Positions 3,948 through 19,573 of a stretch of DNA of 64,000 nt are shown here, in pieces. Source of the DNA: Longimicrobiales bacterium (GTDB lineage: Bacteria > Gemmatimonadota > Gemmatimonadetes > Longimicrobiales > Gaopeijiaceae); contig JAWLHJ010000003.1 in the NCBI GenBank assembly GCA_041690395.1, forward strand, positions 32,001 through 96,000, written 5' to 3'. The notes under the pieces were generated by a model. It was not told the DNA's origin. It saw only the letters and a list, made by a program, of their open reading frames with translations, and made no database searches. The translations under genes were made by a program, and so were the position numbers. Positions within the stretch are counted from its first letter, which is position 1. The number at the start of each line of letters is the position of its first letter.

Positions 3948-5212
3948 CACGGGCTGGGCGTTTCGCCGTGCTCCTGGCCGGGCTCGCTCTCCTGGGCGGC
4001 GCCCGGGCCGCCCCCGCTCCGGGTCAGACCCCCGCGCCTCCCTCGGCCGGCGGTGAGCCAGGGTCGGAGCTCCGCGTCTGGCTGATCACGATCGGACCCG
4101 GCGACGCCATCTGGGAGCGCTTCGGGCACAACGCGATCCGTCTGCTCGACACGAGTACCGGCTACGACGCGTCGTACAACTGGGGCATCTTCGATTTCCA
4201 GCAGGAGGATTTCATTCCGCGTTTCCTGCGCGGCGAGATGCTGTACATGATGGCGCCCTTCGCCAGCGAGCCCATGATCGACATGTACCGGGCGGCGGGA
4301 CGGGAGGTGATCGCCCAGGAGCTGGCGCTGACGCCCGCACAGAAGCTCGAGTTGCGCGACTTCGCGGAGCGGAACGCGCTGCCCGGAAACCGTGAGTACT
4401 TCTACGACTACTTCCTGGACAACTGCTCGACGCGGGTTCGCGACCTGCTGGACCGGGTACTGGGTGGCGCCCTTTTCGCGCGCTTCGGCACGGAGCCGAC
4501 GGGGACGTCTTACCGCTATCATACGCGCCGCCTCACCCAGCCCGACCGGCCACTGTACACGGGTATGGACATCCTGCTGGGCAGCCCCGGTGATCAGCCG
4601 ATCACCGTGTGGGCCGAGATGTTCCTGCCCATGACGGTCCGTGACGCCATCCGCGACTTCAGCGTGGACGACGGCGAGGGCGGCACCCGACCCCTCGTGC
4701 TGTCCGAAGAGCTCCTGGCCGAGGCGCGGGTCGCCGACGAGCCCGAACGGGCGCCGACCTGGTGGTACTGGTATCTGCTCGCCGGGCTGCTCGGCGGGGG
4801 GGCGTTCGCGTTCCTCGGGCGTCGGGCCGCGGGCGGCTCGGCACGGGCCCGCTGGGCGTTCGCCGGATTCGGGGGACTCTGGGGCGCCCTGGCGGGCATC
4901 GCCGGTCTCATCCTGGTCGCGGTCCTCTTCACGGACCACCAGTTCATGACGTGGAACGAGAACCTCTTCCTGCTCTCGCCCCTGTCGCTCGCTCTGGCTC
5001 CCCTCGTGCCCCTGGCCGCGATGCGTCCCTCGGTGCGGACGTGGGCCGTGCGCGTGGCGGGAGCCGTGGTGGCGCTCGCGGTGATCGGCCTGGTGATCGG
5101 CCTGCTGCCCTTCGCCGTCCAGCGGAACGCGTTCGAGATCGCCCTCTTCCTCCCGCTCCACGTCGGGCTGTGGCTGGGAGTCAGCGCACTGGGTTCTTCA
5201 GCGACCGGTTGA
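3944..5212 (+). CDS. DUF4105 / Lnb-type lipoprotein N-acyltransferase-like membrane protein
   Basis: TTG start overlapping the upstream stop. Signal peptide, FGHNAIR, YNWGIFDF and YDYFLDNCSTRVRD motifs, then ~4-5 C-terminal TM helices. Confidence 0.75.
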   Translation: MTRAGRFAVLLAGLALLGGARAAPAPGQTPAPPSAGGEPGSELRVWLITIGPGDAIWERFGHNAIRLLDTSTGYDASYNWGIFDFQQEDFIPRFLRGEMLYMMAPFASEPMIDMYRAAGREVIAQELALTPAQKLELRDFAERNALPGNREYFYDYFLDNCSTRVRDLLDRVLGGALFARFGTEPTGTSYRYHTRRLTQPDRPLYTGMDILLGSPGDQPITVWAEMFLPMTVRDAIRDFSVDDGEGGTRPLVLSEELLAEARVADEPERAPTWWYWYLLAGLLGGGAFAFLGRRAAGGSARARWAFAGFGGLWGALAGIAGLILVAVLFTDHQFMTWNENLFLLSPLSLALAPLVPLAAMRPSVRTWAVRVAGAVVALAVIGLVIGLLPFAVQRNAFEIALFLPLHVGLWLGVSALGSSATG

Positions 5213-5971
5213 GGGTGCGGGCCGATACGCCGTCCGGACGAGCCAGAGGACGTCGACGGCGAAGGAGTACGCGAGCAGCGTGAGCGCGAGACCGCATGCG
5301 CCGGCCACCAGCGACGGGGGGACCACCGGCGCGAGGGCCACGAGAAGGGCCGCCACCTGCACGACGCAGATCGCCTTGCGGCGGAAGCTCGGAGGCAGAT
5401 CTCCCGTCAGCGGCGTCCAGAGCCACCCGGCCAGGACGAACAGGTAGCGAACGAGTCCGATCCAGACGACCCAGAAGCCGAGCGGGGTGCTGGTCCACAC
5501 GAGCGCGGCGAGCACGAGGATCAGGAACGCGTCGAGCTCCATGTCGAAGCGGGCGCCGAAACGGGTCTCCGAGGCCGTCCGCCGCGCCACCGCGCCGTCC
5601 ACACCATCGAGTGCGAGCGCCACGAGTGCGAGCGCCACCGCGAGCCATGCGAGGGACCCTAGCGCGCTTCCGGGGGTCACCAGCAGAGCGGCGACGGGTA
5701 GCACCAGCGTGGCGCGCAACAAGGTGACGCGATTCGCCCAGCCGAGCCCGGGTGGCGGCAAGCGTCGGGGAGCGCCGGCAACGACGAGGGCGCTCAGCGC
5801 TGCGTATCCGAGAAGCACCGTCCACACGTACACGTCCGGGAGGTCGTGCCAGCGGGCGATGGCCACGGCGGCGGCGGCCGCAGGGACGGCCGCGACGGCG
5901 AGGTCACGGAAGCGGAATGGCCCGTCGGGACGCGTGGGAGCGGAGTGAGCGGATGGGGGCGGGGTACTCAA
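5198..5971 (-). CDS. CDP-alcohol phosphatidyltransferase family protein
   Basis: Signature DGVDGAVARR...FGARFDMELD plus ANRVTLLR; multi-TM. The start (TTG at 5971) is uncertain. Confidence 0.9.
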   Translation of the reverse strand: MSTPPPSAHSAPTRPDGPFRFRDLAVAAVPAAAAAVAIARWHDLPDVYVWTVLLGYAALSALVVAGAPRRLPPPGLGWANRVTLLRATLVLPVAALLVTPGSALGSLAWLAVALALVALALDGVDGAVARRTASETRFGARFDMELDAFLILVLAALVWTSTPLGFWVVWIGLVRYLFVLAGWLWTPLTGDLPPSFRRKAICVVQVAALLVALAPVVPPSLVAGACGLALTLLAYSFAVDVLWLVRTAYRPAPSTGR

Positions 5972-5996
5972 GGCCTGCGACGATGATTCGAGGACG

Positions 5997-6989
5997 ATGA
6001 CGGAAACGATCCATACCCGGCAATTCTGGATACGGTCGCCCGGGCAGGGCGCGGTCGAGGACCGAGCCATCGCGCCGCCGGGTGCGGGGGAGCTCCTCGT
6101 GGAAGCCTCCTACTCCGGCATCAGCCGCGGCACGGAGGCCCTCGTGTTCAACGGGGCCGTGCCCGAGTCCCAACACGATGCCATGCGTGCGCCCTTCCAG
6201 GAGGGCTCGTTCCCCGGGCCCGTGAAATACGGCTACAGCAGCGTCGGGAGGGTCGCGCGCGCGGCCGACGCCCCCGAGCTCGAGGGACGCTCCGTCTTCT
6301 GCCTGTTTCCGCACCAGGACCGCTACGTCGTCCCGGTGGACGCCGTCGTGCCGTTGCCCGAGGGACTCCCGGAGGGGCGCGCGGTGCTCGGCGCGAACAT
6401 GGAGACGGCGCTCAACGTGGTATGGGACGCGGGGGTCGGACCGGGCGACCGTGCGCTGGTCGTCGGCGGCGGCGTGGTCGGCCTGCTCGTCGCCTGGATC
6501 GCCCGGGGGATCCCGGGGAGCGATGTCCTGATCGTCGACGTGGATCCGTCGCGGGCGGAGGTGGCCGAGGCGCTGGGCGTCTCCTTCGCCGGCTCCGTGC
6601 CCGCGGGCTTCGACGCCGACGTGGTCGTGCACGCCAGCGGCTCGCCGGAAGGAGCCGCCGCGGCTCTTGGCGGGGCGGGTGTCGAGGGGCGGGTCGTCGA
6701 GGCGAGCTGGTTCGGCGACCGGAGCGTGGGCCTGCCGCTCGGCGAGGCGTTCCACGCCCGCAGGATCACGCTTCGGAGCAGCCAGGTCGGGCGGATTCCG
6801 CCGGAGCGGGCGCCGCGCTGGACCCACCGCCGCCGGATCGAGAAGGCATTGGAGCTGCTGCGCGCTCCGGTGCTCGACCGGCTCGTGACCGGAGAGAGCC
6901 CGTTCGACGAGCTTCCAGACACCCTCCGTCGGCTCAGCGACGACCCGGCGGGAGCCCTCTGCCACCGCATCCGATATCGCCCGGGCTGA
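5997..6989 (+). CDS. Medium-chain dehydrogenase/reductase (zinc-ADH fold, catalytic Zn ligands apparently absent)
   Basis: SGISRGTE and GYS in place of C..D/GHE; Rossmann motif VVGGGVVG. Confidence 0.85.
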   Translation: MTETIHTRQFWIRSPGQGAVEDRAIAPPGAGELLVEASYSGISRGTEALVFNGAVPESQHDAMRAPFQEGSFPGPVKYGYSSVGRVARAADAPELEGRSVFCLFPHQDRYVVPVDAVVPLPEGLPEGRAVLGANMETALNVVWDAGVGPGDRALVVGGGVVGLLVAWIARGIPGSDVLIVDVDPSRAEVAEALGVSFAGSVPAGFDADVVVHASGSPEGAAAALGGAGVEGRVVEASWFGDRSVGLPLGEAFHARRITLRSSQVGRIPPERAPRWTHRRRIEKALELLRAPVLDRLVTGESPFDELPDTLRRLSDDPAGALCHRIRYRPG

Positions 6990-7030
6990 GTGTCCGGGAC
7001 CTGTTTACCCTCCCCACTCGAGGAAGACCA

Positions 7031-7429
7031 GTGTATAGCCTGACAGTCCGAGACCACTTCATGATCGCCCACAGCTTCGCGGGCGAGATCTTCGGCCCGG
7101 CCCAGCGCCTCCACGGCGCCACCTATGTCGTGGACGCGTCCTTCCGACGCGGCGATCTCGACGCGGACGGCCTCGTGGTCGACATCGGGAGGGCCCGGGA
7201 GGTGCTGCGCGAAATCCTCAGCGAGCTCGATTACCGCAACCTCGACGAGGTCGAAGCGTTCGAGGGCGAGAACACGACCACCGAGTTCCTGGCTCGCGAG
7301 GTCTTCGACCGGATCGCGAGAGCCCTGCGGGATGGAGCGATGGGCCCGGGTGGGCGTGGCGTCCAGACCGTGGAGGTGACCCTCAAGGAGTCGCACATCG
7401 CCTGGGCGAGCTACGAGGGCGCGGTGTGA
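7031..7429 (+). CDS. 6-pyruvoyl-tetrahydropterin synthase-like T-fold protein (COG0720, atypical PTPS-IV-like)
   Basis: GTG start after GAGGAAG. Motifs MIAHSF, FGPAQRLHGATY, LDYRNLD, NTTTEFLA, ESH. Confidence 0.88.
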   Translation: MYSLTVRDHFMIAHSFAGEIFGPAQRLHGATYVVDASFRRGDLDADGLVVDIGRAREVLREILSELDYRNLDEVEAFEGENTTTEFLAREVFDRIARALRDGAMGPGGRGVQTVEVTLKESHIAWASYEGAV

Positions 7430-8526
7430 CCTCACGGCGTATCCACTTCGTGGTCCCCGGAGCCCTCGACCAGCGGACCGGCGGGTATCTCTACGACGCC
7501 CGCATGGTGGCCGAGATGAGGGCCGTCGGTCGGGATGTCGTCGTGCACGAGCTCGACGGAGCCTTTCCGGCCGCGGACGAGGTGGCGCGTGGAAGCATGG
7601 GGGCGGCGCTGGAGCGGGTCGGCGACGACGAGCTGGTCGTCGTGGACGGCCTCGCCGGCGGCGGACTCCCGGAGGAGCTGGGCCGCCACGCTCGCCGCGT
7701 CCGGCTGGTGGGGCTCGTCCACCACCCGCTCGCCGACGAAACGGGGCTGTCCGAGGCGGAGGCGGCCCGCCTGGCGGCGTCCGAGCGGTCGGCCCTGGCG
7801 GTGTGCCGCGGGGTCGTGGTCACCAGCCGCTTCACCGCCCGGAGACTCGGCGCCTACGGGGTGGCGGCGCGGCGCATCCGGGTGGCCGTCCCGGGGACCC
7901 GTCCCGCTGCGCCCGCGTCGGGCCCCGAGGCCGGAGCCCCGCCGCGGCTTCTGTGCGTGGGCTCCCTGACGCGGAGGAAGGGACATCTGGTCCTGGTCGA
8001 GGCGCTGGCCACGGTCGCGGAGCTGGATTGGAACTGCTCGCTGGCGGGCAGCGAGACGCTCGACCCGGATCATGCGCGTGAGGTGCATCGCGCCGTCACC
8101 GAACACGGGTTGGAGGACCGGGTGTCCTTCCTCGGAGAGCTCGACGAGCCCTCCCTCGACGACGCCTACGCGGGGGCGAGTCTGTTCGTCCTGGCGTCGT
8201 ACTACGAGGGGTACGGCATGGCCCTCACTGAAGCGATCGCACGGGGGCTGCCGGTGCTCAGCACTACGGGCGGAGCGATCCCGTACACGGTGCCCGCGGA
8301 GGCGGGCGTGCTCGTCGAGCCTGGCGACCCGGGGGCACTCGCCCGAGCGCTCCGCGGCCTTCTGGTCGAGCCGGATGGCACGCTAGCCACGCTTCGGGAG
8401 GGGGCCCTCCGTGTGGCGGCCGACCTCCCCGACTGGCTGGCCGCCGGGGCTACATTCCTCTCGGCGGTCGAGGAGGCCGGCCACGGAGTCCCTCTCGCCG
8501 TTTCCGGGACGGGCACGCCGTCATGA
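7426..8526 (+). CDS. Glycosyltransferase family 4
   Basis: TGGYLYD, VGSLTRRKG, EGYGMALTEA (GT-B EX7E motif). Confidence 0.92.
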   Translation: MTSRRIHFVVPGALDQRTGGYLYDARMVAEMRAVGRDVVVHELDGAFPAADEVARGSMGAALERVGDDELVVVDGLAGGGLPEELGRHARRVRLVGLVHHPLADETGLSEAEAARLAASERSALAVCRGVVVTSRFTARRLGAYGVAARRIRVAVPGTRPAAPASGPEAGAPPRLLCVGSLTRRKGHLVLVEALATVAELDWNCSLAGSETLDPDHAREVHRAVTEHGLEDRVSFLGELDEPSLDDAYAGASLFVLASYYEGYGMALTEAIARGLPVLSTTGGAIPYTVPAEAGVLVEPGDPGALARALRGLLVEPDGTLATLREGALRVAADLPDWLAAGATFLSAVEEAGHGVPLAVSGTGTPS

Positions 8527-9353
8527 GCGACGCTCCCGAACGCCGAGACGCGTTTTCCGCCGGCTGGCTCGCGCTGCGGGAGCCCGTCGACCACCGGACG
8601 CGCGCGGAAGCGTTGCTCGCGCCTCTGGCGACGGAGTGGCGGAGGCGGGGGTGGAGACGCGTAGTCGACCTGGGCTCCGGGACCGGATCGAACGCCCGCT
8701 ACCTGGCGCCACGCCTGCCGGGTCCCCAGCGGTGGGTGCTCGTCGACCACGACGCGGACCTGCTCGAGGGGGCCACCGTTCCGTCGTCGGTCGACGACGT
8801 GCGGCGGATCGTGGGCGATCTCGCCGCGGAGGGGCTCGAGGCCGTCCATGAAGCCGATCTGGTCACCGGTTCCGCTCTCCTGGATCTCGTGTCCGGGGCG
8901 TGGCTGGAGCAGCTTGTCGACGCCTGCCTGTCCGCGGGGGCGGGTGCGCTGTTCACCACCATCTACGACGGCACGGTGCATTGGAGCGACGAGCGCCCGG
9001 ACGACGCACGGGTGAAGGAGTTGGTGAACGCTCATCAGGCCCGAGACAAGGGCCTCGGTGGCGCACTCGGCCCGAGGGCGGCTCGCGCGGCTCGTGACCG
9101 GTTCGAGGTCGCGGGCTACCGGACCTGGCTGACGCCGAGCCCGTGGAGCCTCGGTACGGGCGACGCACAGTTGGCGCGCCTGCTAGTCGAAGGTTGGGTC
9201 GATGCGGCGGTCGAGCAGAGCCCCGCCGACGCGGATCGACTCAGGGCGTGGGGCCGTGCGAGGTGCGCGGACGTGGACGGTGGAGTCGCCCGGGTCGTCG
9301 TGGGACATCTGGACCTGCTCGCCCTCCCTCCGGCGGAGCACGAGGACCGGTGA
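8523..9353 (+). CDS. Class I SAM-dependent methyltransferase-like protein
   Basis: FSAGWLALREPVD N-terminus, SAM motif VDLGSGTGSN, SALLDLVS. Confidence 0.85.
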   Translation: MSDAPERRDAFSAGWLALREPVDHRTRAEALLAPLATEWRRRGWRRVVDLGSGTGSNARYLAPRLPGPQRWVLVDHDADLLEGATVPSSVDDVRRIVGDLAAEGLEAVHEADLVTGSALLDLVSGAWLEQLVDACLSAGAGALFTTIYDGTVHWSDERPDDARVKELVNAHQARDKGLGGALGPRAARAARDRFEVAGYRTWLTPSPWSLGTGDAQLARLLVEGWVDAAVEQSPADADRLRAWGRARCADVDGGVARVVVGHLDLLALPPAEHEDR

Positions 9354-10342
9354 AGCGCCGGGCGCGCCGCTGGCTCCGGGGCCTCGCGGGACCCATCATT
9401 CTCCTGGGTGTCGCCCTGACGGTCGACGTCCGAGCGGTGTCGGAGCGCCTCGCCGCCCTCGAGGCGCCCTGGGTGCTAGCCGCGCTTGCGGTCGGCGTCG
9501 GGCAGACGCTCCTCTCCGCCTGGCGCTGGAGGTACACCGCCGGCCGCCTCGGACTCACGATCCCATTTGCGCTGGCGCTCCGCGAGTACTACCGCGCGAT
9601 CTTCCTGAATCAGGTGCTGCCCGGCGGCGTCCTGGGCGACGCCGACCGCGCCTGGCGCCATTCGGGACGAGCTCCCGAGGCGCGCGGGCCGGCGGTTCGA
9701 GCGGTGGTCCTGGAGCGGCTCTCGGGCCAGGTGGTGATGGCCGCGGTGGCGTCGATCTCCTTCGGCTTCATCGCGCTGCGCGCCGGAACCGGGGCCCTCG
9801 GTTGGTGGGTCGCGTCGCTGGGCGTGGCCGCCGTTGCCGGCGTCGCCGTGGCGGTATCGGTCCGAGCGCCGCGCAGCTCCTCGCCCGCTTCGGTGACGGC
9901 CGCCCTCAGACGTGACGCCCGGGCCGCGCTCTTCTCCGGTGAGGCCGTGTACGTCCAACTCGCGACCTCGACGGTCATCATCGCATCGTACGTCGCGGCC
10001 TACCTGCTCGCGGCGCGGGCGGTGGGCGTCGAGACGCCCCTCGTCGCGGTGGCGCCTCTGGTCGCACCGGTCCTGCTGGCGATGCTGCTTCCCGTCTCGG
10101 TCGGGGGGTGGGGCGTGCGTGAGTCCGCCGCGGCCGCGATCTGGAGCGTCGCGGGCCTGGGCGCCTCGGACGGCGTGGCGATCTCCGTCGCGTACGGCCT
10201 GATTGTGCTCGTCGGCACGGTGCCGGGAGGCTACGCGCTCCTGTTCGGTGGAACACCCGTCGCGGCCGAAGCGGTCGAGGGGCTGCCGGAGCCCGCCCGT
10301 AGGTCCAGGTCGAAGAGGATGTCGGCGCCCAGCGCGAAGTGA
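9350..10342 (+). CDS. Lysylphosphatidylglycerol-synthase TM / UPF0104 flippase-like protein
   Basis: SAWRWR, FLNQVLPGGVLGD, VVLERL, PVSVGGWGVRE motifs; multi-TM; GTGA overlap. Confidence 0.88.
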   Translation: MKRRARRWLRGLAGPIILLGVALTVDVRAVSERLAALEAPWVLAALAVGVGQTLLSAWRWRYTAGRLGLTIPFALALREYYRAIFLNQVLPGGVLGDADRAWRHSGRAPEARGPAVRAVVLERLSGQVVMAAVASISFGFIALRAGTGALGWWVASLGVAAVAGVAVAVSVRAPRSSSPASVTAALRRDARAALFSGEAVYVQLATSTVIIASYVAAYLLAARAVGVETPLVAVAPLVAPVLLAMLLPVSVGGWGVRESAAAAIWSVAGLGASDGVAISVAYGLIVLVGTVPGGYALLFGGTPVAAEAVEGLPEPARRSRSKRMSAPSAK

Positions 10343-11136
10343 CGGCAAGCGGGCCGGAGCGCGGCGTCGAGCTCGTCGATGACCGGCAGGCTCAGCCCCT
10401 GGCGCCCGGATCCGATGATCATGGGCGCGACCGTGACGTGCAGCCGATCGAGCGCGCCGGCCTCCAGGAAGCGGGATACGGTGATGCCACCGCCTTCGAC
10501 AAGGATCCGCCGGTAGCCACGCCCGCGCAGCAGCGCAATGAGGGCTCCAGGAGGTACGGACCCGGCGCGCCCACGCTCTGGCGGCGCGATGACCTCCACG
10601 TGGCCGGGTAGACCCGCCTCCGGCGTACCGTCCCGGATCCAGAGCGTGGGCGCGTCGGCGTCGGTGAAGAGCGGCCCTTCCGGCGGGACGCGCCCGTTCG
10701 GATCGAGCACGATCCTGGTCGGATGCTCTCCTTCGACGAGGCGCACCGTCAGGCGCGGGGCGTCGGAGACGGCAGTCCCCGCGCCGACGATCACGGCGTC
10801 GACGAGGGCGCGCAGGCGGTGGAGTCTCACGATGTCCTCCGGGCCGGTCACGTAGTGGGACCGACCGGACTCCGTGGCCACCCGTCCGTCGAGGCTCTGC
10901 CCGATCTGGCCCACGACGTAGTCCGGGCGCGCCGCCAGCGGCAGATAGAGGTCCAGGATCGCTCGGGCCTCCGGGCCAGGAGGAGGCTGGGTGTGCCACC
11001 CCCCTTCGTCGTCGAGCACGAGGAGGTGGCCGGAGGCGTCGCGCACGCGCGCGGGCGGCGCCGACCCGTCCGACACGGCGCCGGCCACCGCGCGCACCAG
11101 CGACCAGGCCGCGGCCGCGTCGAGTGAGGCGTTCAC
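10231..11136 (-). CDS. RibD C-terminal-type reductase (no deaminase domain)
   Basis: QSLDGRVAT, RLRALVDAVIVGAGT..DAPRLTVR, LVEGGG motifs; no HAE/PCxxC deaminase motif. GTGA overlap with the creatininase stop. Confidence 0.88.
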   Translation of the reverse strand: MNASLDAAAAWSLVRAVAGAVSDGSAPPARVRDASGHLLVLDDEGGWHTQPPPGPEARAILDLYLPLAARPDYVVGQIGQSLDGRVATESGRSHYVTGPEDIVRLHRLRALVDAVIVGAGTAVSDAPRLTVRLVEGEHPTRIVLDPNGRVPPEGPLFTDADAPTLWIRDGTPEAGLPGHVEVIAPPERGRAGSVPPGALIALLRGRGYRRILVEGGGITVSRFLEAGALDRLHVTVAPMIIGSGRQGLSLPVIDELDAALRPACRHFALGADILFDLDLRAGSGSPSTASAATGVPPNRSA

Positions 11137-11954
11137 GACCGGTCCGTCAGGCGATCCAGCGGGAAACGGGCCGCGTCGGCGAGCACGCGCGCGAGGTACG
11201 CGCCGTATCCTTCGACGAGGCGGGCGCCCATCTCCTTCGTGGCCAGGTGCGCGTTGCCGGTCACGCCGTCGGGGTTGAGATCCTGCGCGGTCCAAGCGAA
11301 CGCGGCGGCTCCCTCGGGCAGCAGGACGTCGAGGGTCTCCTCGAGCTTCGCGCCGAGCGACGGGAAGTCCCGAACGGTCTCCTTCCGCACCAGATCGGGA
11401 CGGAGGTGCATCATCATGGCCGTCTCGACCGCACCGCCGTGGAGCCCGTGACGCCATTCGGCTTCCGGCAGCTCGACGCCGTCCGGCCGGGGAAACCGGA
11501 AGACGTGGGCCTTCACCACCAGGAGCCCGTGATCCGTCCGCGCCCGGAGCGCGGCCCCGTCGACGACATGCTTGTTGCCCCCGTGCGCGTTCAGGATCAC
11601 CAGCCGGTGGATCCCCTCGGCCGCGACCGCGGCGGCCAGCGAGCCGAGTACGCGCCCGAGGGTCTCCGCGTCCAGCGACAGGGTGCCCCCGAGCCCCACG
11701 TGCTCCTCGCTCGAGCCGAGGGAGAGGTGCGGCAGGACGACGACGGGCACCTTGGCCGCCGTGGACTCCAGGGCCCGCTCCAGGATGCCTGCCGCGATCA
11801 GGAGGTCGGTCGACACCGGGAGGTGCGGCCCGTGCTGCTCGATCGCGCCGAGGGGCAGGACGGCGACCGGATCGTGTCCGGCGGCGGCCGCGAGCTCCGG
11901 GCGGGTCGCGGTCTCCCAGGAGAGCGGGAAGACGGGGGCGGGCGCTCGGGTCAT
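11133..11954 (-). CDS. Creatininase-family amidohydrolase (candidate formamidopyrimidine deformylase)
   Basis: LPLGAIEQHGPHLPVSTD, SEEH, NAHGGN, HGGAVET. Confidence 0.92.
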   Translation of the reverse strand: MTRAPAPVFPLSWETATRPELAAAAGHDPVAVLPLGAIEQHGPHLPVSTDLLIAAGILERALESTAAKVPVVVLPHLSLGSSEEHVGLGGTLSLDAETLGRVLGSLAAAVAAEGIHRLVILNAHGGNKHVVDGAALRARTDHGLLVVKAHVFRFPRPDGVELPEAEWRHGLHGGAVETAMMMHLRPDLVRKETVRDFPSLGAKLEETLDVLLPEGAAAFAWTAQDLNPDGVTGNAHLATKEMGARLVEGYGAYLARVLADAARFPLDRLTDRS

Positions 11955-12700
11955 GGGACGGACTCCTCGATCAAGCGGGCGTACAGGTCGCCGAACGGGA
12001 GATCGTCCGCGCCTCCTTGGAGCCACGCGCGCGCCTCACCGGCGGTGAGCCATCCGTCGAAGACGAAGTTGCGGTCCTCTCCGGCCACGGCATTGTACTC
12101 GTAACGCCCCAGCGTCTCCAGCCGTGCGACGCACGCCTCGGCCACCTCGAGCCCTCCCCGGACGAACTCCACCGAGAGCGCCGACACGGCCCGGCTGAGG
12201 CCCTCGAGCGCTTCGGCCTCGTAGCCCTCGATGTCCAGCTTGCAGAAATCCGGGAGGCCGAAACGGTCCACGAGCGCGTCCAGCGTCGTCATGGGGACCT
12301 CGATCTCGTCCTCCCAGCGCACGCCCTCGAACCCCGGATTGCGCTCGGGCATCCGGTCGCGCCACAGCCGTGAGACCGTCGATACGGTGGGGGTGCGCCG
12401 ACTCACCGCCAGGCGGGCGGTCCCCTCCTTCGGGCCGACGGCCTCCTCGACGATCTCGACGCCCGAGCGGCGCCCCACCAGCCGGCGGAGCCACGTGGCG
12501 ACCCGCGGCTGCGGCTCGAGCGCGATCACCCGGGCTCCGAGGGCCGAGAACGCCGCGGTTCGGTCGCCCAGGTGGGCGCCGACGTCGAACACGAGGGAGC
12601 CCCGGCCGACGAACGGCCGGTACAGGCGGCGGAGGGCCGGCTGTCTCCCCGGGCGCCAGTAGACGAGGAGGGAGCGCAGGAGCCCGAAGATCTCACCCAC
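11951..12700 (-). CDS. FkbM family methyltransferase
   Basis: FDVGAHLG, ALEPQP, TTLD, KLDIEGYE. Confidence 0.9.
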   Translation of the reverse strand: MGEIFGLLRSLLVYWRPGRQPALRRLYRPFVGRGSLVFDVGAHLGDRTAAFSALGARVIALEPQPRVATWLRRLVGRRSGVEIVEEAVGPKEGTARLAVSRRTPTVSTVSRLWRDRMPERNPGFEGVRWEDEIEVPMTTLDALVDRFGLPDFCKLDIEGYEAEALEGLSRAVSALSVEFVRGGLEVAEACVARLETLGRYEYNAVAGEDRNFVFDGWLTAGEARAWLQGGADDLPFGDLYARLIEESVP

Positions 12701-14393
12701 CGGGACCGGCCTGCGCGAGGTCCTTGGGTCCGCTGAAGGTCGGCACGAACCAGGGCCGGAAGCGGTCCATGCGAGGGGCATCTCCCTCTGGGTCCGGGAA
12801 CGCCCCGGGCACGAAGCCCCACTCGAGGAACGGCGCCACGAGGTCCGGGTCACCGCTGACGACGTGCACGGGGACGGTCCGTGGCGCGCCGTCCCCGGTC
12901 ACCAGCGGCGCGGGCTGGTGATCGCCGAGAATGATCAGCAGCATGTCCTCGCCGACGTAGCGCTCGGCGTAGGACGTCGCCGAGTGCACGGCGTAGTCGA
13001 TGGACAGCGCGAAGTGCTCCCGCACGCGGTCGGCGTTCCGCCAGAGGTCCTCGGGGCGCTCACCGGCATCGCGCCAGGGCTCGAACACGGCGCCGTTTCC
13101 GATGCCTTCCCAGTCTTCGAGCACCGGCAGGATGGGGGTCCACGGCGCGTGGCTGCTGATCAGCCCCAGCTCCGCGAAGAGCGGACGCTCGTCGTCGCGC
13201 CCGCGGATGGTGTGCTCGAGGAACGACCAGGTGAACTGGTCCGGCATGGTCACCCAGTTCAGCGGGGGGCCGGCATACCCGATGGCCTCGAAGTCGTAGA
13301 TCTCGTCGTAGCCGAACCGCTCACCCTCGGGCCAGGCGAGCGTGATGGCCGGCATCAATGCCGCCGTGCGGTATCCCGCGGCGCGGAAGTCGTCGACGAG
13401 CGTCTGGCGGCGGCTCGCGAGCAGGAGGTCGTAGCGCATCTGGTTGTGGAGCCAGAGGCCGCTCAGCACGGAGCCGTGGCCGAGCCAGGACTGCCCGCCC
13501 TGGCTCGGCGCCACCATGCTGCCGCTCGCGAGCGTCAGTCCCGCTTCGGCCATGCGACGCTCCATCTCCTCGAGTCGCGGCCGCAGGACGGATGCGTAGC
13601 GGGGATCGTCCAACACCACGCTCCCGTACGACTCGACGAACGCGAGCACGACGTCCCGGCCGCCGAGTCGGTCGAACAGGCCCGGGAGCTCCGCGTAGCT
13701 GTCGGTCGTCGCCGAGAGCTCGGCCTCGAAGGCCTCTCGCTCCTCATTGAGCGCCGACAGGAAGCGGGATTGCTCCAGCACGAGACGGACCCCCGGGAAC
13801 CCGAGGCCGCCCGCTCCGCCCGCGGCACGCGCTCCGAACATCATCATACCGGTCACCACGACCGCGATCACGGCATTCCGCCGGCTCCATAGAATGGGGC
13901 GGACGCCGCGCGGCGGGGCCAGCAGGTGGCCGAGGACCGCCACGGTGGCGAGGACGGCGCTCACTGCGAGCACCCCGGCGAGAGCCGCCGCCACCCCTCC
14001 CAACGTTCCCGTCAGGAGGTTGAAGACGGCGCTCAGGAGCTGGACGTCGAGATACAGGTTGAGCGGGCGGGACAGGCTCATGCGGGTCGAGGCGTCGCCG
14101 AGACCGATCAGCCCGGTCGCAACGACCAGCGTGGCGGCGAGCAGGGCGGCCGCCAGGCTCCACCAGGCACGGGGAAGCGCGGCGAACACGAGGGCGAGGA
14201 GCCAGGCCTCGACCGCGATCCAATGGAACGGAACCATGCCGGGGGCGCCCCATTGCGGGGCGAGCAGCACGGCATTGACAACCAGAAACGCCAGGACGAG
14301 GCTCAGGAGTCTTCCGGACGCGGTCGACGGCCACGAGGCCAGCGCCTTCGCGACGGAGGCCGGTCTCCCGACGGTCGCCGAATCGGAGCTCAT
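12693..14393 (-). CDS. Membrane-anchored alkaline-phosphatase-superfamily (LtaS/OpgB/sulfatase-like) protein
   Basis: ~5 N-terminal TM helices, then FVESYG, GGQSWLGH, SSHAPW and GDHQP metal-site motifs. Confidence 0.8.
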   Translation of the reverse strand: MSSDSATVGRPASVAKALASWPSTASGRLLSLVLAFLVVNAVLLAPQWGAPGMVPFHWIAVEAWLLALVFAALPRAWWSLAAALLAATLVVATGLIGLGDASTRMSLSRPLNLYLDVQLLSAVFNLLTGTLGGVAAALAGVLAVSAVLATVAVLGHLLAPPRGVRPILWSRRNAVIAVVVTGMMMFGARAAGGAGGLGFPGVRLVLEQSRFLSALNEEREAFEAELSATTDSYAELPGLFDRLGGRDVVLAFVESYGSVVLDDPRYASVLRPRLEEMERRMAEAGLTLASGSMVAPSQGGQSWLGHGSVLSGLWLHNQMRYDLLLASRRQTLVDDFRAAGYRTAALMPAITLAWPEGERFGYDEIYDFEAIGYAGPPLNWVTMPDQFTWSFLEHTIRGRDDERPLFAELGLISSHAPWTPILPVLEDWEGIGNGAVFEPWRDAGERPEDLWRNADRVREHFALSIDYAVHSATSYAERYVGEDMLLIILGDHQPAPLVTGDGAPRTVPVHVVSGDPDLVAPFLEWGFVPGAFPDPEGDAPRMDRFRPWFVPTFSGPKDLAQAGPGG

Positions 14394-14429: not shown

Positions 14430-16127
14430 ATGTCGTTTCGTCTGCCCGCCGCACTGATCGCCCTCGTCACGGGAATCCTCGTCGCGCTGTGGATATCGCG
14501 GGCCCCGACGCTACCGCCCGGAGACCGCGGGGCCAACCCCGAGGTCACAGAGGGAACTCCCGGCGCCACCGCACCCGGCTCCTCGGCGCCCCCGGCTCCC
14601 GCGGGACCCGCCACCGGCTCCGCGGAACTGCCGACCTGGGAGGTCGCACCCGGGTCGATCGAAGACGATCTCACCCGGATCGCCCGGGACCTCGCCCGCT
14701 CCGAGTACCGCCCGCCGGACGCCGCCGTTCCCCCGGCGCTCCTGGGTCTGGACTTCGACGGCTACCGCCGGATCCGCTTCCGACCCGAGCAGGCGATCTG
14801 GCGGGGCGTCACGGACTACGAGCTGCAGCTCTTTCACCTGGGCACTTCTCTGTACGACCAGCCGGTGAGCGTGCACCTGGTGGAGGACGACTCCGTCCGG
14901 CGCCTCGAGTACGACCCGGCCCTGTTCGCCTTCGAGGGGGCCGCGACGTCGCTGGCCGACCTGGCCCCCGGCGCCGTGCCCGGCTTCGCCGGCTTCCGCG
15001 TCCACTACCCGCTCAACGATCCCGACACCCACGACGAGGTCGCGGCGTTCCTGGGCGCCTCGTATTTCCGAGTGCTCGGCTCGGGGCAGGAGTACGGGCT
15101 TTCGGCCCGCGGCCTGGCGGTCGACCCCGCGGTCGAGGGTCCGGAGGAGTTTCCCGACTTCCGCGCGTTCTGGATCGAGCGGCCCGACGCGGCGGGGAGT
15201 CCAATCGTGATCCACGCGCTCCTCGACGGTCCGTCCGTTTCGGGGGCGTTCCGCTTCGAGCTCGGTCCCGGGGACCCGACCGAGGTGCTCGTCGACGCGC
15301 GCCTGTTCGCTCGACGCGACGTCCGGAAGCTCGGGGTGGCGCCGCTGAGCAGCATGTTCCTGCACGCTCCCGGGCACGGCCCGTCGCACGACGACTTCCG
15401 TCCCCGCGTCCACGACTCCGACGGCCTCCAGACCAAGACGGGGAAGGGGGAGTGGATCTGGCGTCCGCTCGGCAATGGACCCGGGCTCCACGTCACGTCG
15501 CTCAGGGACGAGGCCCCGGCAGGCTTCGGACTCCTCCAGCGCGCACGGGACTTCGAGGACTACCTCGACCTCGAGGCGCGGTACCATCGCCGCCCGGGAT
15601 ACTGGATCGAGGTGCTAGGCGGCGATTGGGGGGCGGGAGGCGTCGAGCTGCTGGAGATTCCCTCCGCGTCGGAGTTCAACGACAACGTCGCTGCGTACTG
15701 GGTGCCCGACCGGCCGTTCCGCGCAGGTGACGAGCGGCGCTTCCGTTATCGCCTGGTGACGGTGGGGGGCGTACCGCCCGAGATGGACGTGGCACGCGTC
15801 GTGCGTACGGTGGTGTCTTGGGATGCGCTCCCCGGTGAGGCGAATCCGCCGCCACGAAGCCGGCGCCGTTTCGTCGTCGACTTCCGGGGAGGGCGGCTTT
15901 CCGATCCCGAGGTGGTAGACGACCTTCGGGTGGATCTTTCGGTGTCACGCGGAGCCGTGGAGGAGGTCATGATCGTGCCTCTCCCGGGTAACAGTGGCCG
16001 GAGGGTGACGTTCGCCCTCGATCCCCAGGGAGATGCACCGGCCGACATGCGCCTCAACCTCGTCGCGGGCGATGAGCCCGTGAGCGAGACGTGGAGCTAC
16101 GTGTGGTACCCAGGAAGAATCGACTGA
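14430..16127 (+). CDS. opgG: Periplasmic glucan biosynthesis protein OpgG/OpgD (MdoG family)
   Basis: YRRIRFRP, FLGASYFR, YGLSARGLA, EEFPDF, RPRVHDSDGL, EWIWRPL, EFNDN. N-terminal hydrophobic anchor and Pro/Ala linker. Confidence 0.92.
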   Translation: MSFRLPAALIALVTGILVALWISRAPTLPPGDRGANPEVTEGTPGATAPGSSAPPAPAGPATGSAELPTWEVAPGSIEDDLTRIARDLARSEYRPPDAAVPPALLGLDFDGYRRIRFRPEQAIWRGVTDYELQLFHLGTSLYDQPVSVHLVEDDSVRRLEYDPALFAFEGAATSLADLAPGAVPGFAGFRVHYPLNDPDTHDEVAAFLGASYFRVLGSGQEYGLSARGLAVDPAVEGPEEFPDFRAFWIERPDAAGSPIVIHALLDGPSVSGAFRFELGPGDPTEVLVDARLFARRDVRKLGVAPLSSMFLHAPGHGPSHDDFRPRVHDSDGLQTKTGKGEWIWRPLGNGPGLHVTSLRDEAPAGFGLLQRARDFEDYLDLEARYHRRPGYWIEVLGGDWGAGGVELLEIPSASEFNDNVAAYWVPDRPFRAGDERRFRYRLVTVGGVPPEMDVARVVRTVVSWDALPGEANPPPRSRRRFVVDFRGGRLSDPEVVDDLRVDLSVSRGAVEEVMIVPLPGNSGRRVTFALDPQGDAPADMRLNLVAGDEPVSETWSYVWYPGRID

Positions 16128-16128
16128 C

Positions 16129-19071
16129 TTGATCGCTACGGCTCAATTACCTATCCGAAGCTCGCCCCCTGCCGCGCGGCTCGATACGCCGTGGCTCGGG
16201 CTGCGCCGTGCCCTGTTTTTCGCTCTCGTCCTCGCCACCACGGTGTACGGCGTGTCGATGATGGCCGCGTTGGTGTCGGGTGGAGGCACGACCCGGCTCG
16301 AGCTGCTGATCCTCGTTTTGTTCGCGCCCACGTTCGCGTGGATCTCCGTCGCATTCTGGAATGCCGTGGTGGGGTTCATCCTCCGGGCGTTCGGACGCGA
16401 CCCGCTGACGCTCGAGCGCATCGACGCCCCGGGTGGCCCGGCCCGGTTGGCGCCGCTCAGTTCGAGAACGGCGCTGGTCGTGCCGGCCCGGAACGAAGAC
16501 GCCTACGCGGTCGTTCGGCGAATCGAGGCGATGTTGGGGTCCCTCGAGAGGGCAGGTCATGCCGGCGCCTTCGACGTGCACCTCCTGAGCGACACCGACG
16601 ATCCGGAGCGGATCCCGGCGGAAGATGGGGCGTGGGCGGGTCTGGCCGGGCGCTACTCGGGCGCGGCCGGGCTCCATTACCGACGCCGAGCGCACAACGA
16701 AGGTCGGAAAGCCGGCAACATCGCGGAGTTCCTCGGCCGCGCGGGCGCGGGGTACGAGTACATGGTGGTGTTGGACGCCGACTCCGTCATGTCGGCCGAC
16801 ACCCTCGTCCGGCTCGTGCGTACGATGGACGCGAACCCGACGGCCGGCCTGGTGCAGACGGTTCCGCTTCCGGGCCCGCAGACGACGCGCTTCGGGCGCT
16901 TCGTCGAGCTTGCCGCCGGCCTGTACGGACCGATGCTCGCGGCCGGGCAGAGCTTCTGGCAAGGCGACGCCGCCAACTACTGGGGGCACAACGCGATCGT
17001 GCGTGTCGAGCCCTTCGTGCGGCACTGTCGGCTGCCGGTGCTGTCCGGCTCGCCGCCCCTCGGCGGTGAGATCCTGTCGCACGACTTCGTGGAGGCCGCA
17101 TTGCTGCGTCGGGCCGGTTGGGGGGTATACCTCCTGGCCGGGGCCGGAGGGAGCTGGGAGGACGTCCCCGCGAACCTGATCGACTACGCGCGGCGGGACC
17201 GCCGTTGGTCCCAGGGAAGCCTGCAACACCTGAAGCTGCTCGCGCTCGGGGGCCTTCACCCCATCAGCCGGCTGCACTTCCTGCTGGGCGCCATGGGATA
17301 TGTGTCGTCCCTCCTGTGGCTCCTGCTTCTGTTGGCGAGCACGGCGTACGTGGCCGGCGTCGCGCCGCTCGCGGATCCCGTGCTGGACGGGGTCGCGGGC
17401 ATGGGCTCGTGGACCCTCCTCCAGCCTTTACCCTCGCTGCTGGCGGTGACGGCGGCGATCCTCTTTCTGCCCAAGGGACTCGGGTTGCTGCTCGCGCTCC
17501 GGCAGCGGGAGCGGTACGGGGGGGCGGCGCGGTTGATCGGTGCCGGTGTCGCGGAAGCAGGCTTCGCGGTCGTGGTGGCGCCGATCATGATGATGTTCCA
17601 CGCGAAGTTCGTGTTGGAAGTCATGGTAGGACATTCGGTTGCCTGGACGACGCAGCTCCGTGACGGCACGTCGGTGCCGTGGGGCGATGCGACCCGGGCG
17701 GTCGGATGGATCGGCGCCGGGGGACTCCTCTGGGCCGCGGGAACGTGGTCCCTGAGTCCTCTGTTCTTCGCGTGGATGGCCCCGATTTTCATCGGGCTGC
17801 TCGCCGCGATTCCTCTCGTCCGATGGACCTCTCGTCCGTCGGTCGGTGTTTTCGACTCCGGTCCGATGCAAGACCGGGTTCCATTTTCTCCGGTATCCGG
17901 GACCGCCGTAGAGCGGGGAGGTTCGGTGAACGATATGTACGAGGCAGAGCGTGGGCTCTTCGAGCTGAGACGGCGTCGGGCGCTGCTCGTCACGCACGCG
18001 GCGAACGGCGACGGTACGGCGGGGGGCGACGCGCTGGTCGCGTCCGCCGAAGGATTGGGTGACGAGACCTTGGCGTCCCTGCGCCGCCTCGCCGATGGGC
18101 CGCTCCACCTGGTCGTCACGCCGCACCGGGCCCGTGCCCTCGGCATCCAACTCAGCCCCGGCCCGCTGGCGTTGCGGCTCCCGGCCGACGCCGGTCCGGG
18201 TGACGTGCTCCACCTGTGCAGCGAGCGCGGATCGACTCCGCCACGCGGTATGACCGTTCGACCGGCCACGGCGGCCGAGGCGCAGGGTCTGGCGTTGGCC
18301 CGGCTCGCCCAGCTCCTCCCGGCTGTGGTGGCGGGAAGTGTCTCGTCGACCCCGCGTGCGGAGCTGACGGAGGTACTGGCCGCCCGCCGGATCCTGCAGG
18401 TCGACTCGAAGCGCATCCGTGCCGCGCTCGAAGCGCCGAGGATCTCCGTCTCGCAGGTCAGTGAAGCCCCGGTTCCGCTGCAGGATGCCGAGGACGCCCG
18501 CTTCGTCCTGTTCCGGGAGGATCATGCTCTCCTGGAGCACGTCGCGATCATGATCGGGCGTCGCGAAGCGTGGCCGGACCCGGTGCCGGTGCGGCTGCAC
18601 TCGGCGTGCCTCACGGGCGACCTGTTCGGGAGCCTGAAATGCGACTGCGGCGAGCAGCTTCGCGGGAGCCTTCGGCACTTCCAGGAGCAGGGGGGCGGCG
18701 TGCTGCTCTATCTCCAGCAGGAAGGGAGGGGCATCGGGCTCGGAAACAAGCTGCGGGCCTACTCGCTCCAGGACGGAGGACTCGACACGGTGGACGCGGA
18801 CTGCACGCTCGGCTTCGGACCGGACGAGCGGACCTACGACGCCGCTCTCGACATGCTCCACCAACTCGGGATCGAGCGCGTGCAGCTGCTCACGAACAAC
18901 CCGGACAAGCTGAGGGCCGTGGAGCGGGGCGGGATCCAGGTCATGGATCGCATGCCCCTCCACGGGACGCTCAACCGGTACAATCTCCCGTACGTGAAGG
19001 CGAAGGTGCAGCGCGCCGGCCACTGGCTGGGCGACATGCTCTCCGGCGTGTCGGGGAACGGAAGTAGTTGA
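16129..19071 (+). CDS. Fusion ORF: glucan glucosyltransferase OpgH (MdoH, GT2) + degenerate RibB-like domain + GTP cyclohydrolase II (RibA)
   Basis: aa ~1-570: RKAGNI, VLDADS, NYWGHNAI, LSHDFVEA, RDRRWSQG and TM helices. C-terminus: VRLHSACLTGDLFGSLKCDCGEQL, QEGRGIGLGNKLRAY, LLTNNPDK. No stop codon between the halves. Confidence 0.88.
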   Translation: MIATAQLPIRSSPPAARLDTPWLGLRRALFFALVLATTVYGVSMMAALVSGGGTTRLELLILVLFAPTFAWISVAFWNAVVGFILRAFGRDPLTLERIDAPGGPARLAPLSSRTALVVPARNEDAYAVVRRIEAMLGSLERAGHAGAFDVHLLSDTDDPERIPAEDGAWAGLAGRYSGAAGLHYRRRAHNEGRKAGNIAEFLGRAGAGYEYMVVLDADSVMSADTLVRLVRTMDANPTAGLVQTVPLPGPQTTRFGRFVELAAGLYGPMLAAGQSFWQGDAANYWGHNAIVRVEPFVRHCRLPVLSGSPPLGGEILSHDFVEAALLRRAGWGVYLLAGAGGSWEDVPANLIDYARRDRRWSQGSLQHLKLLALGGLHPISRLHFLLGAMGYVSSLLWLLLLLASTAYVAGVAPLADPVLDGVAGMGSWTLLQPLPSLLAVTAAILFLPKGLGLLLALRQRERYGGAARLIGAGVAEAGFAVVVAPIMMMFHAKFVLEVMVGHSVAWTTQLRDGTSVPWGDATRAVGWIGAGGLLWAAGTWSLSPLFFAWMAPIFIGLLAAIPLVRWTSRPSVGVFDSGPMQDRVPFSPVSGTAVERGGSVNDMYEAERGLFELRRRRALLVTHAANGDGTAGGDALVASAEGLGDETLASLRRLADGPLHLVVTPHRARALGIQLSPGPLALRLPADAGPGDVLHLCSERGSTPPRGMTVRPATAAEAQGLALARLAQLLPAVVAGSVSSTPRAELTEVLAARRILQVDSKRIRAALEAPRISVSQVSEAPVPLQDAEDARFVLFREDHALLEHVAIMIGRREAWPDPVPVRLHSACLTGDLFGSLKCDCGEQLRGSLRHFQEQGGGVLLYLQQEGRGIGLGNKLRAYSLQDGGLDTVDADCTLGFGPDERTYDAALDMLHQLGIERVQLLTNNPDKLRAVERGGIQVMDRMPLHGTLNRYNLPYVKAKVQRAGHWLGDMLSGVSGNGSS

Positions 19072-19072
19072 C

Positions 19073-19573
19073 CTGAGGCGGTTCCTGGCTGTGGCGGCCC
19101 TGGCGATGGCCGCCTGCTCCGGTCCGCCTGAGGTCGAGCGCGATCCCGCTCCGCTCCTGCAGACCTCGGCGGTGCGGTACACGTTCGAGCGGCACGACTT
19201 CGGCTATTCGACGACGATTCCGTTCACCTACAGGAACGAGACCGACGTCGACGTGCTCGTGGACCACTGTGACGGCGACGTCCGCCCGCTCCTCCAGATC
19301 CGCCGCGGCGACCGGTGGGTCGACCAGTGGCACCCGTTCATGGACGGCTGCTCGAGCCCACCCCTCCGTATCGCCCCCGGCGAGGTCTACTCCGACACGT
19401 TACGCGTGATCGGGGCCCCGCCGGGATCGAACGTCACGCCGGCCTTCGTGTTCGAAGACGTGGAAGGCGTGTATCGTTTGTATTGGTTCCAGGCGCGCCT
19501 TTCCGACTCGGACTCGGTCGCCACCGCACTGCCGTGGCGCGTCTCGAACCCGTTCGTGATCGAGCTCCCTTGA
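19073..19573 (+). CDS. Hypothetical lipoprotein (beta-rich)
   Basis: Lipobox MAAC. A complete signal (RRFLAVAALAMAAC) needs the CTG at 19073; the first canonical start is GTG 19091. Confidence 0.65.
   Translation: MRRFLAVAALAMAACSGPPEVERDPAPLLQTSAVRYTFERHDFGYSTTIPFTYRNETDVDVLVDHCDGDVRPLLQIRRGDRWVDQWHPFMDGCSSPPLRIAPGEVYSDTLRVIGAPPGSNVTPAFVFEDVEGVYRLYWFQARLSDSDSVATALPWRVSNPFVIELP

Follow-up and report, generated by a model that had tools for sequence, protein, structure and literature searches.

The gene examined here lies in a 64,000-nt stretch of DNA from a Longimicrobiales bacterium (GenBank assembly GCA_041690395.1, contig JAWLHJ010000003.1, positions 32,001 to 96,000), hereafter called the window. 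A single reading frame in this window joins OpgH, the predicted membrane synthase of osmoregulated periplasmic glucan (OPG), to a predicted GTP cyclohydrolase II that we call RibA2. The OpgH-RibA fusion is almost certainly real, and it is an old, clade-wide feature that is widespread in Gemmatimonadota. We also consider it very probable that selection has kept the two halves joined. A tentative explanation, to which we assign a little less than an even chance, is that the fusion tethers the first step of an orphan PTPS-IV (6-pyruvoyltetrahydropterin synthase IV) pathway, and that this pathway ends by decorating the periplasmic glucan with a GTP-derived group.

Both halves and the PTPS-IV cluster belong to kinds that are already known, and the fusion itself was not found described. 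No publication on an OpgH-RibA fusion or on a link between PTPS-IV and OPGs was found in a search limited largely to openly accessible papers. In public databases the fused proteins stand under the name MdoH only.

An OpgH-RibA fusion in Gemmatimonadota

None of the 980 codons of the frame is an internal stop, and both halves are recognized by family profiles, as the initial annotation of this DNA had proposed from the letters alone. Residues 22-573 match the OpgH profile NF003958 with 672 bits (cutoff 419; profile positions 16-574 of 704) and also exceed the cutoff of NF003962 (551 versus 328). This half is 39% identical to residues 136-708 of Escherichia coli OpgH over 580 columns, and shares with that protein its GT2 (glycosyltransferase family 2) motifs, its membrane helices and its place after opgG, which puts the OpgH half in an operon with that gene. 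Residues 604-967 match RibA, exceeding the cutoff of PRK00393 (220 versus 148 bits). The best match of the RibA half (its residues 4-365) is PRK08815, at 325-327 bits under a cutoff of 464, so by that cutoff it is not a PRK08815 equivalog.

The catalytic residues expected of each half are present. Those checked in the RibA half, namely the Zn cysteines (C827-x10-C838-x-C840), the Tyr of KxRAY (KLRAY, 874-878) and the Asp and Arg of DER (899-901), have roles in GTP cyclohydrolase II. An alignment with the RibBA encoded elsewhere in the genome confirms that the RENEGD motif, present in RibBA, is missing from the RibB-like part of the fusion; by this criterion the fused RibA is not a bifunctional RibBA. 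Like RibA proteins of the PRK08815 type and RibBA, the fused protein combines a RibB-like domain, here degenerate, with a GTP cyclohydrolase II domain that carries all checked catalytic residues; it differs in being joined to a membrane synthase and in lying outside a riboflavin operon. Among 99 proteins compared, the catalytic motifs of both halves are near-invariant, and key residues of the GT2 motifs SD, KAGN, DADS, SHD and RxRRW are kept in 97-99.

An alignment-based structure model of the fusion has both halves well folded (mean pLDDT 85.6; pTM 0.63) and residues 579-601 disordered. Among its structure matches are cellulose synthases and the GTP cyclohydrolase II of E. coli, with the RibA half superposing on 2bz0 at an rmsd of 1.8 A; a sequence search of the PDB with the OpgH half alone gave no match. 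Residue 574 aligns with residue 708 of E. coli OpgH, inside its cytoplasmic C-terminal domain (702-848; PMC3723540), so RibA2 is predicted to hang in the cytoplasm, where GTP is. RibA2 thus stands in place of that C-terminal domain, and the N-terminal domain by which E. coli OpgH blocks FtsZ (PMC3723540) is absent from the fusion. The long OpgH tail is indeed missing, as had been pointed out; this is not peculiar to the fusion, because unfused OpgH proteins of the clade are also short-tailed, with 43-88 aa after residue 569 at 18 of the 18 loci whose tail ends within the contig.

The junction is crossed without a gap by contigs X2 (17306-19200), X13 (17638-19065) and X3 (17805-17990), which come from three of four public runs; contig X1 begins only at 17885. 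X13 derives from an RNA library and may be DNA, so it is no sign of transcription. When the RibA half was searched against proteins selected for a length of 539-1715 aa, OpgH and RibA were both present in 101 of the 120 long homologues listed among 479 matches. The named taxa among the listed fused proteins are Gemmatimonadota or Longimicrobiales, with one entered just as 'bacterium'. Misassembly is rejected by the gap-free contigs and by the presence of the fusion in many relatives. The initial annotation had left the choice between a real fusion and a recent deletion or stop loss; the former stands and the latter is rejected, as the fusion is common to proteins down to ~50% identity.

A search of 301 genomes of the same family gave 99 that matched. 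In 45 of these opgH lies directly before ribA2, and 36 of the pairs are fused (four of the genes run off their contig inside RibA), so relatives do not all keep the two genes separate, the outcome that had been named as fatal to the idea. The other nine adjacent pairs are split, as checked in the DNA; G031 and G147 are counted here because their DNA shows stops despite an open-frame listing. By coordinates, opgH and ribA2 lie 3.7-20 kb apart on one contig in 17 of the 99 genomes; they lie on different contigs in five, and two genomes list OpgH only.

Linker evolution and a probable internal start

The linker, estimated beforehand at ~30 aa, comprises 33 codons here. Fused linkers occur in 16 lengths between 33 and 98 aa, all in frame, which requires at least 15 length changes without a frame break; events that did disrupt it are estimated at 2-5. 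On the assumption that two-thirds of indels shift the frame, P is ~2e-4 or less, a value that rests on a rough event count among kin that are not independent. Off-frame windows of linker size are free of stops in only 37 of 70 cases. The in-frame length changes argue for selection on read-through. Within the genus, the linker changes without a codon-position pattern.

Fission is evidently tolerated: compared with their fused sister G184, G248 and G260 have both lost the same 2 nt, which breaks the gene in two while ribA remains whole from the same ATG; in both (L084, L085), OpgH stops just inside the ribA2 start. An OpgH tree (77 rows, quick tree) has seven changes between fused and unfused states and a RibA2 tree (56 of 71 rows recovered) has five. 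A test of a single origin does not reject it (p-AU 0.55; 74 rows, three dropped), and one origin with later fissions is compatible with the trees.

The initial annotation had raised the possibility that the cyclohydrolase is also made on its own, and the GGAGG, GTG and ATG on which it relied are in place. The intact ribA of G248 and G260 supports this proposal, as do several start-site signatures. In three phyla, the start of unfused RibA2 genes is the Met that corresponds to residue 603. Around the internal ATG of 35 fused genes, the folding energy is -7.5 kcal/mol, compared with -7.9 at true starts and -13.6 at 649 other Met codons. Pairing with the anti-Shine-Dalgarno sequence is -6.2 at the internal ATG versus -4.2 at other Met codons, and -5.1 at 18 free genes (four further free genes, which gave no start match, were dropped). 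G+C at third codon positions near the internal ATG dips from 0.8 to ~0.6.

A promoter-like motif, GGA(C/T)C-N17/18-GTT, occurs within 200 nt upstream of the ATG in 24 of the 35 fused linkers. Elsewhere it was found in three of nine split genes, three of eight free Gemmatimonadota genes and none of 10 others. Controls gave 4 of 337 windows, and 1.9 of 35 linkers would be expected after synonymous recoding, for a motif that was defined after inspection of the data. The spacer is N17 in most relatives and N18 here, and in this genus the motif overlaps conserved W-T codons and is therefore weaker evidence. The N17 form resembles the promoter GGAAC-N16-CGTT of ECF (extracytoplasmic function) sigma factors (PMC7083833) but lacks its AAC. 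The arms of the motif could instead form an RNA stem of 6-7 pairs, with one-sided changes only; in 5 of 22 cases the lowest-energy fold contains this stem. A slippery site was rejected on inspection, there being no fitting in-frame heptamer. We read the motif as a cis element of ribA2 retained inside the coding linker.

Two observations count against an internal start and its promoter: Met603 is kept in 96 of the 99 proteins, no better than five other Met columns, and a loose form of the motif shows no intergenic enrichment across the genome (89 versus 89 per Mb). On balance, we think it probable that the internal start is used, and from these signatures free RibA is likely made beside the fused protein. 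The gene is thus a likely case of one frame giving both a membrane-bound and a soluble enzyme. GTP cyclohydrolases II dimerise, and free RibA2 could pair with the tethered copy if it is dimeric like the others.

The PTPS-IV cluster and its association with opgGH

Upstream of the fusion lies a set of genes (Table 1) that includes a PTPS-IV. The FGPAQ signature marks PTPS-IV proteins, whose genes adjoin PF00925 and PF01872 genes (PMC5445326), and the cluster here fits this description in having FGPAQ and neighbours of the GTP cyclohydrolase II and RibD-C types. Where relatives lack the fusion, ribA2 is found within the PTPS-IV cluster, often flanked by the creatininase-like gene and the reductase gene. 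This sequence evidence assigns the fused RibA to the adjacent cluster (5198-14393) as its GTP cyclohydrolase II. An origin as a riboflavin-operon gene is rejected, as the genome has a separate ribD-ribE-ribBA region and a riboswitch search of the window found none. The second pathway in the suggested link would be that of PTPS-IV, and not riboflavin synthesis.

Table 1. Features of the fusion gene and of the neighbouring cluster (positions in the window)
Feature	Position	Strand	Basis
opgH-ribA2 fusion frame, 980 aa, TTG start	16129..19071	+	open frame; fusion conserved in relatives
OpgH half, GT2 membrane glucosyltransferase	16129..17850	+	family profiles; alignment to E. coli OpgH
promoter-like motif GGACC-N18-GTT before internal ATG	17825..17850	+	motif count in relatives
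linker, 33 codons, predicted disordered	17836..17934	+	structure model
GGAGG (17917-17921), in-frame GTG 17926 and ATG 17935; likely internal start	17917..17937	+	start signatures; Met of unfused RibA2
degenerate RibB-like domain (dihydroxybutanone phosphate synthase fold), without RENEGD	17935..18438	+	alignment
GTP cyclohydrolase II domain (Zn cysteines, KLRAY and DER present)	18451..19071	+	motifs; structure match
CDP-alcohol phosphotransferase	5198..6070	-	profile match
zinc-binding dehydrogenase family	5997..6989	+	matches below cutoffs
PTPS-IV (COG0720), FGPAQ signature	7031..7429	+	profile; signature
GT4 glycosyltransferase	7426..8526	+	profile match
class I S-adenosylmethionine (SAM) methyltransferase	8523..9353	+	match below cutoff
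lysylphosphatidylglycerol-synthase transmembrane (flippase-like) protein	9350..10342	+	profile match
RibD C-terminal (pyrimidine reductase) protein	10231..11127	-	profile match
creatininase-family, ArfB/BrbF-like formamidase	11133..11954	-	profile match
FkbM-family methyltransferase	11951..12694	-	profile match
sulfatase-fold membrane protein, candidate phospho-group transferase	12693..14393	-	Pfam Sulfatase E 4.9e-5, below cutoff; motifs
opgG (MdoG family), ends 1 nt before fusion	14430..16127	+	profile match

Several members of the cluster have informative relatives. A creatininase homologue of Sinorhizobium deformylates a GTP ring-opened intermediate (PMC9478397). A Streptomyces plasmid carries a PTPS-IV (COG0720) cluster with the same core, whereas the cluster here is additionally joined to opgGH and the sulfatase-fold gene. 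The RibA of that plasmid cluster (L175:14479-15138, 219 aa) has KLRAM where RibA2 has KLRAY, and 106 other motif matches among the loci compared, some of them duplicates, have AY. The Met variant (KLRAM) reportedly makes a formylated product, as is said to have been found by Spoonamore in 2006.

Other arrangements of these genes were also encountered. Genome G009 (L043, L044) has two PTPS-IV cluster copies; in each, ribA2 adjoins the sulfatase-fold gene and opgH has no match. RibA-type domains are fused to a CDP-alcohol phosphotransferase in P0107 and P0108, to a GT4 in P0114, and to GTP cyclohydrolase I (PF01227) in P0106, P0111-P0113 and P0116-P0121. In the window, the fusion is directly followed by a frame for a 160-aa lipoprotein-like product (19091-19573, plus strand) with no Pfam or NCBIfam match.

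The sulfatase-fold protein has N-terminal hydrophobic helices and conserved ES, GQSW, SHAP and GDH motifs. Predicted membrane helices combined with a putative sulfatase-fold domain without C/SxPxR fit the layout of OpgB, OpgE and LtaS, and the Pfam Sulfatase match, below cutoff here, rises above it in a homologue named 'LTA synthase family'. As with OpgB and OpgE (PMC3818809), a protein that is probably membrane-anchored and sulfatase-like stands beside a GT2 glucan synthase. The synthase-transferase pair BcsA-BcsG, seen in entry titles among the structure matches, is an analogous arrangement.

Association with opgGH was counted at 53 full-length loci of the 80 closest sulfatase-fold homologues, the best of 493. 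The sulfatase-fold gene has opgG or opgH no more than 10 kb away at 12 of 12 loci in Gemmatimonadota, 12 of 12 in Acidobacteriota and 27 of 29 in Gammaproteobacteria, and at least four of seven pathway genes are also near at 12, 10 and 19 of these loci, respectively.

An importer form of the cluster occurs in Alphaproteobacteria (6 of 12 annotated plasmid regions), where the phosphotransferase and sulfatase-fold genes accompany an ABC importer, with no ribA or PTPS nearby. The example on a Dinoroseobacter plasmid (L172:6906-18517), like those of L176, L184, L185 and L186, also has a GT4; in most of these a cytochrome b and a flippase-like gene are present too. The importer binding protein is NMT1/THI5-like in all three cases scanned, and the one that was searched has a formylamino-pyrimidine binding protein as its best PDB match. 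This form fits a small molecule that is imported instead of synthesised. It stands beside mdoH in Dinoroseobacter and in Roseicitreum, where a plasmid (L182:2258-4888) encodes, within the importer form, an 876-aa MdoH with a C-terminal SAM methyltransferase unlike the cluster's own.

Proposed function and competing explanations

The proposed function starts from the observed frame, its spread, its catalytic motifs and its gene neighbourhood. By homology, RibA2 in the cytoplasm would open GTP to a ribosylamino-pyrimidinone phosphate. As gene content suggests, the reductase, PTPS-IV, dehydrogenase, methyltransferases and GT4 would tailor the ring-opened product, the CDP-alcohol phosphotransferase would load it onto a lipid, and the flippase-like protein would move the lipid-linked product out. 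The sulfatase-fold protein would then transfer the group to an outer acceptor, in the way that OpgB and OpgE transfer lipid head groups; their donor is a common phospholipid, and here it would be a lipid made by the pathway. In this clade the best candidate for that acceptor would be OPG, although our confidence in the glucan falls slightly short of even. Tethering of the first step to the inner membrane is likely. Given the flexibility of the linker, tethering and co-expression are more plausible than tight channelling.

The enzymes and the importer lead us to guess that the product is pterin- or pyrimidine-like. A bolder version, which we regard as unlikely, has a redox-active GTP-derived heterocycle loaded onto lipid, moved to OPG and kept reduced by cytochrome b561, with a promoter and start hidden in the linker. 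Cytochrome b561 is present at 29 of the 100 scanned loci, which include some that share a genome, and in 8 of the 12 plasmid regions; the homologue in this genome lies elsewhere and not in the cluster.

A number of findings weigh against glucan decoration by a tethered pathway. The structure model suggests no fixed packing of the OpgH and RibA halves. The fusion is dispensable, given the nine split adjacent pairs and the 17 genomes with the genes apart, and 30 of the 99 family genomes have RibA2 without an OpgH match at 1e-70. A profile of the sulfatase-fold protein matches neither OpgB (3.9%) nor OpgE (0.25%) of E. coli significantly, and these two are themselves not similar to each other (PMC3818809); a sequence search matched no PDB chain. 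The 80 loci surveyed are the closest homologues and kin. Finally, opgGH is near the cluster in only 2 of the 12 plasmid regions and at none of four randomly drawn Gammaproteobacteria loci, and Streptomyces, Rhizobium, Paracoccus and others have the cluster without opgGH.

The last of these findings suits another explanation, which we consider possible though doubtful. RibA2 output would merely be coupled to the opgGH transcript, the two belonging to a shared stress regulon with separate products, and the GTP-derived compound would go to a lipid or another envelope polymer. A flexible linker of such variable length is equally at home here, and the Roseicitreum cluster adjoins nepR, a sigma factor gene and csbD, and its importer is preceded by a GGAAC-N17-GTT site. 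Moreover, the fusion of Roseicitreum OpgH to a methyltransferase unlike that of the cluster suggests that the OpgH tail may simply accept fusions. Against coupling of expression stands the fact that in three phyla, and despite rearrangements, opgG or opgH persists beside the sulfatase-fold gene. In addition, read-through would not be needed for expression alone, given that RibA2 has retained start signals of its own.

Two further explanations appear improbable. RibA2 could sit at the membrane as a reserve enzyme that feeds flavin or deazaflavin synthesis, with flavin secretion as one possible purpose. Its canonical GTP cyclohydrolase II residues and its RibD-reductase and formamidase-like neighbours agree with such a role; PMC9478397 speculates on a membrane-bound flavin-secretion metabolon, and PMC5041015 cites unpublished work tying PTPS-IV to F420. 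The separate riboflavin genes, the lack of a riboswitch in the window and the degenerate RibB-like domain speak against it, and the GT4, lipid phosphotransferase, flippase-like and sulfatase-fold genes would be left unexplained. Equally improbable is an inherited, neutral stop loss in which the tethered copy is idle and free RibA2 does all the work. Fissions survive in G248, G260 and perhaps G001, the single origin is not rejected and the linker evolves like non-coding DNA, all of which agree with such an accident. Nevertheless, the linker has changed length in frame again and again, and no stop has been fixed in 36 genomes.

The PTPS-IV cluster is widespread, and the literature consulted gives no published product for it. 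The fusion and the opgGH neighbourhood point to the periplasmic glucan as the place to look for that product. The OPGs of E. coli carry succinyl groups and common lipid head groups as substituents, so a GTP-derived substituent would, if true, be new chemistry. Under the bolder version above, the periplasmic glucan would be decorated with a cofactor, and Longimicrobiales would have made the link permanent by joining the pathway's first enzyme to the synthase. The idea of a GTP-derived substituent is testable, since cultured Halomonadaceae and Dinoroseobacter carry the same cluster together with opgGH. At three Halomonadaceae loci (L139, L141, L143), which have no opgH match within the locus, opgG stands beside the sulfatase-fold gene.

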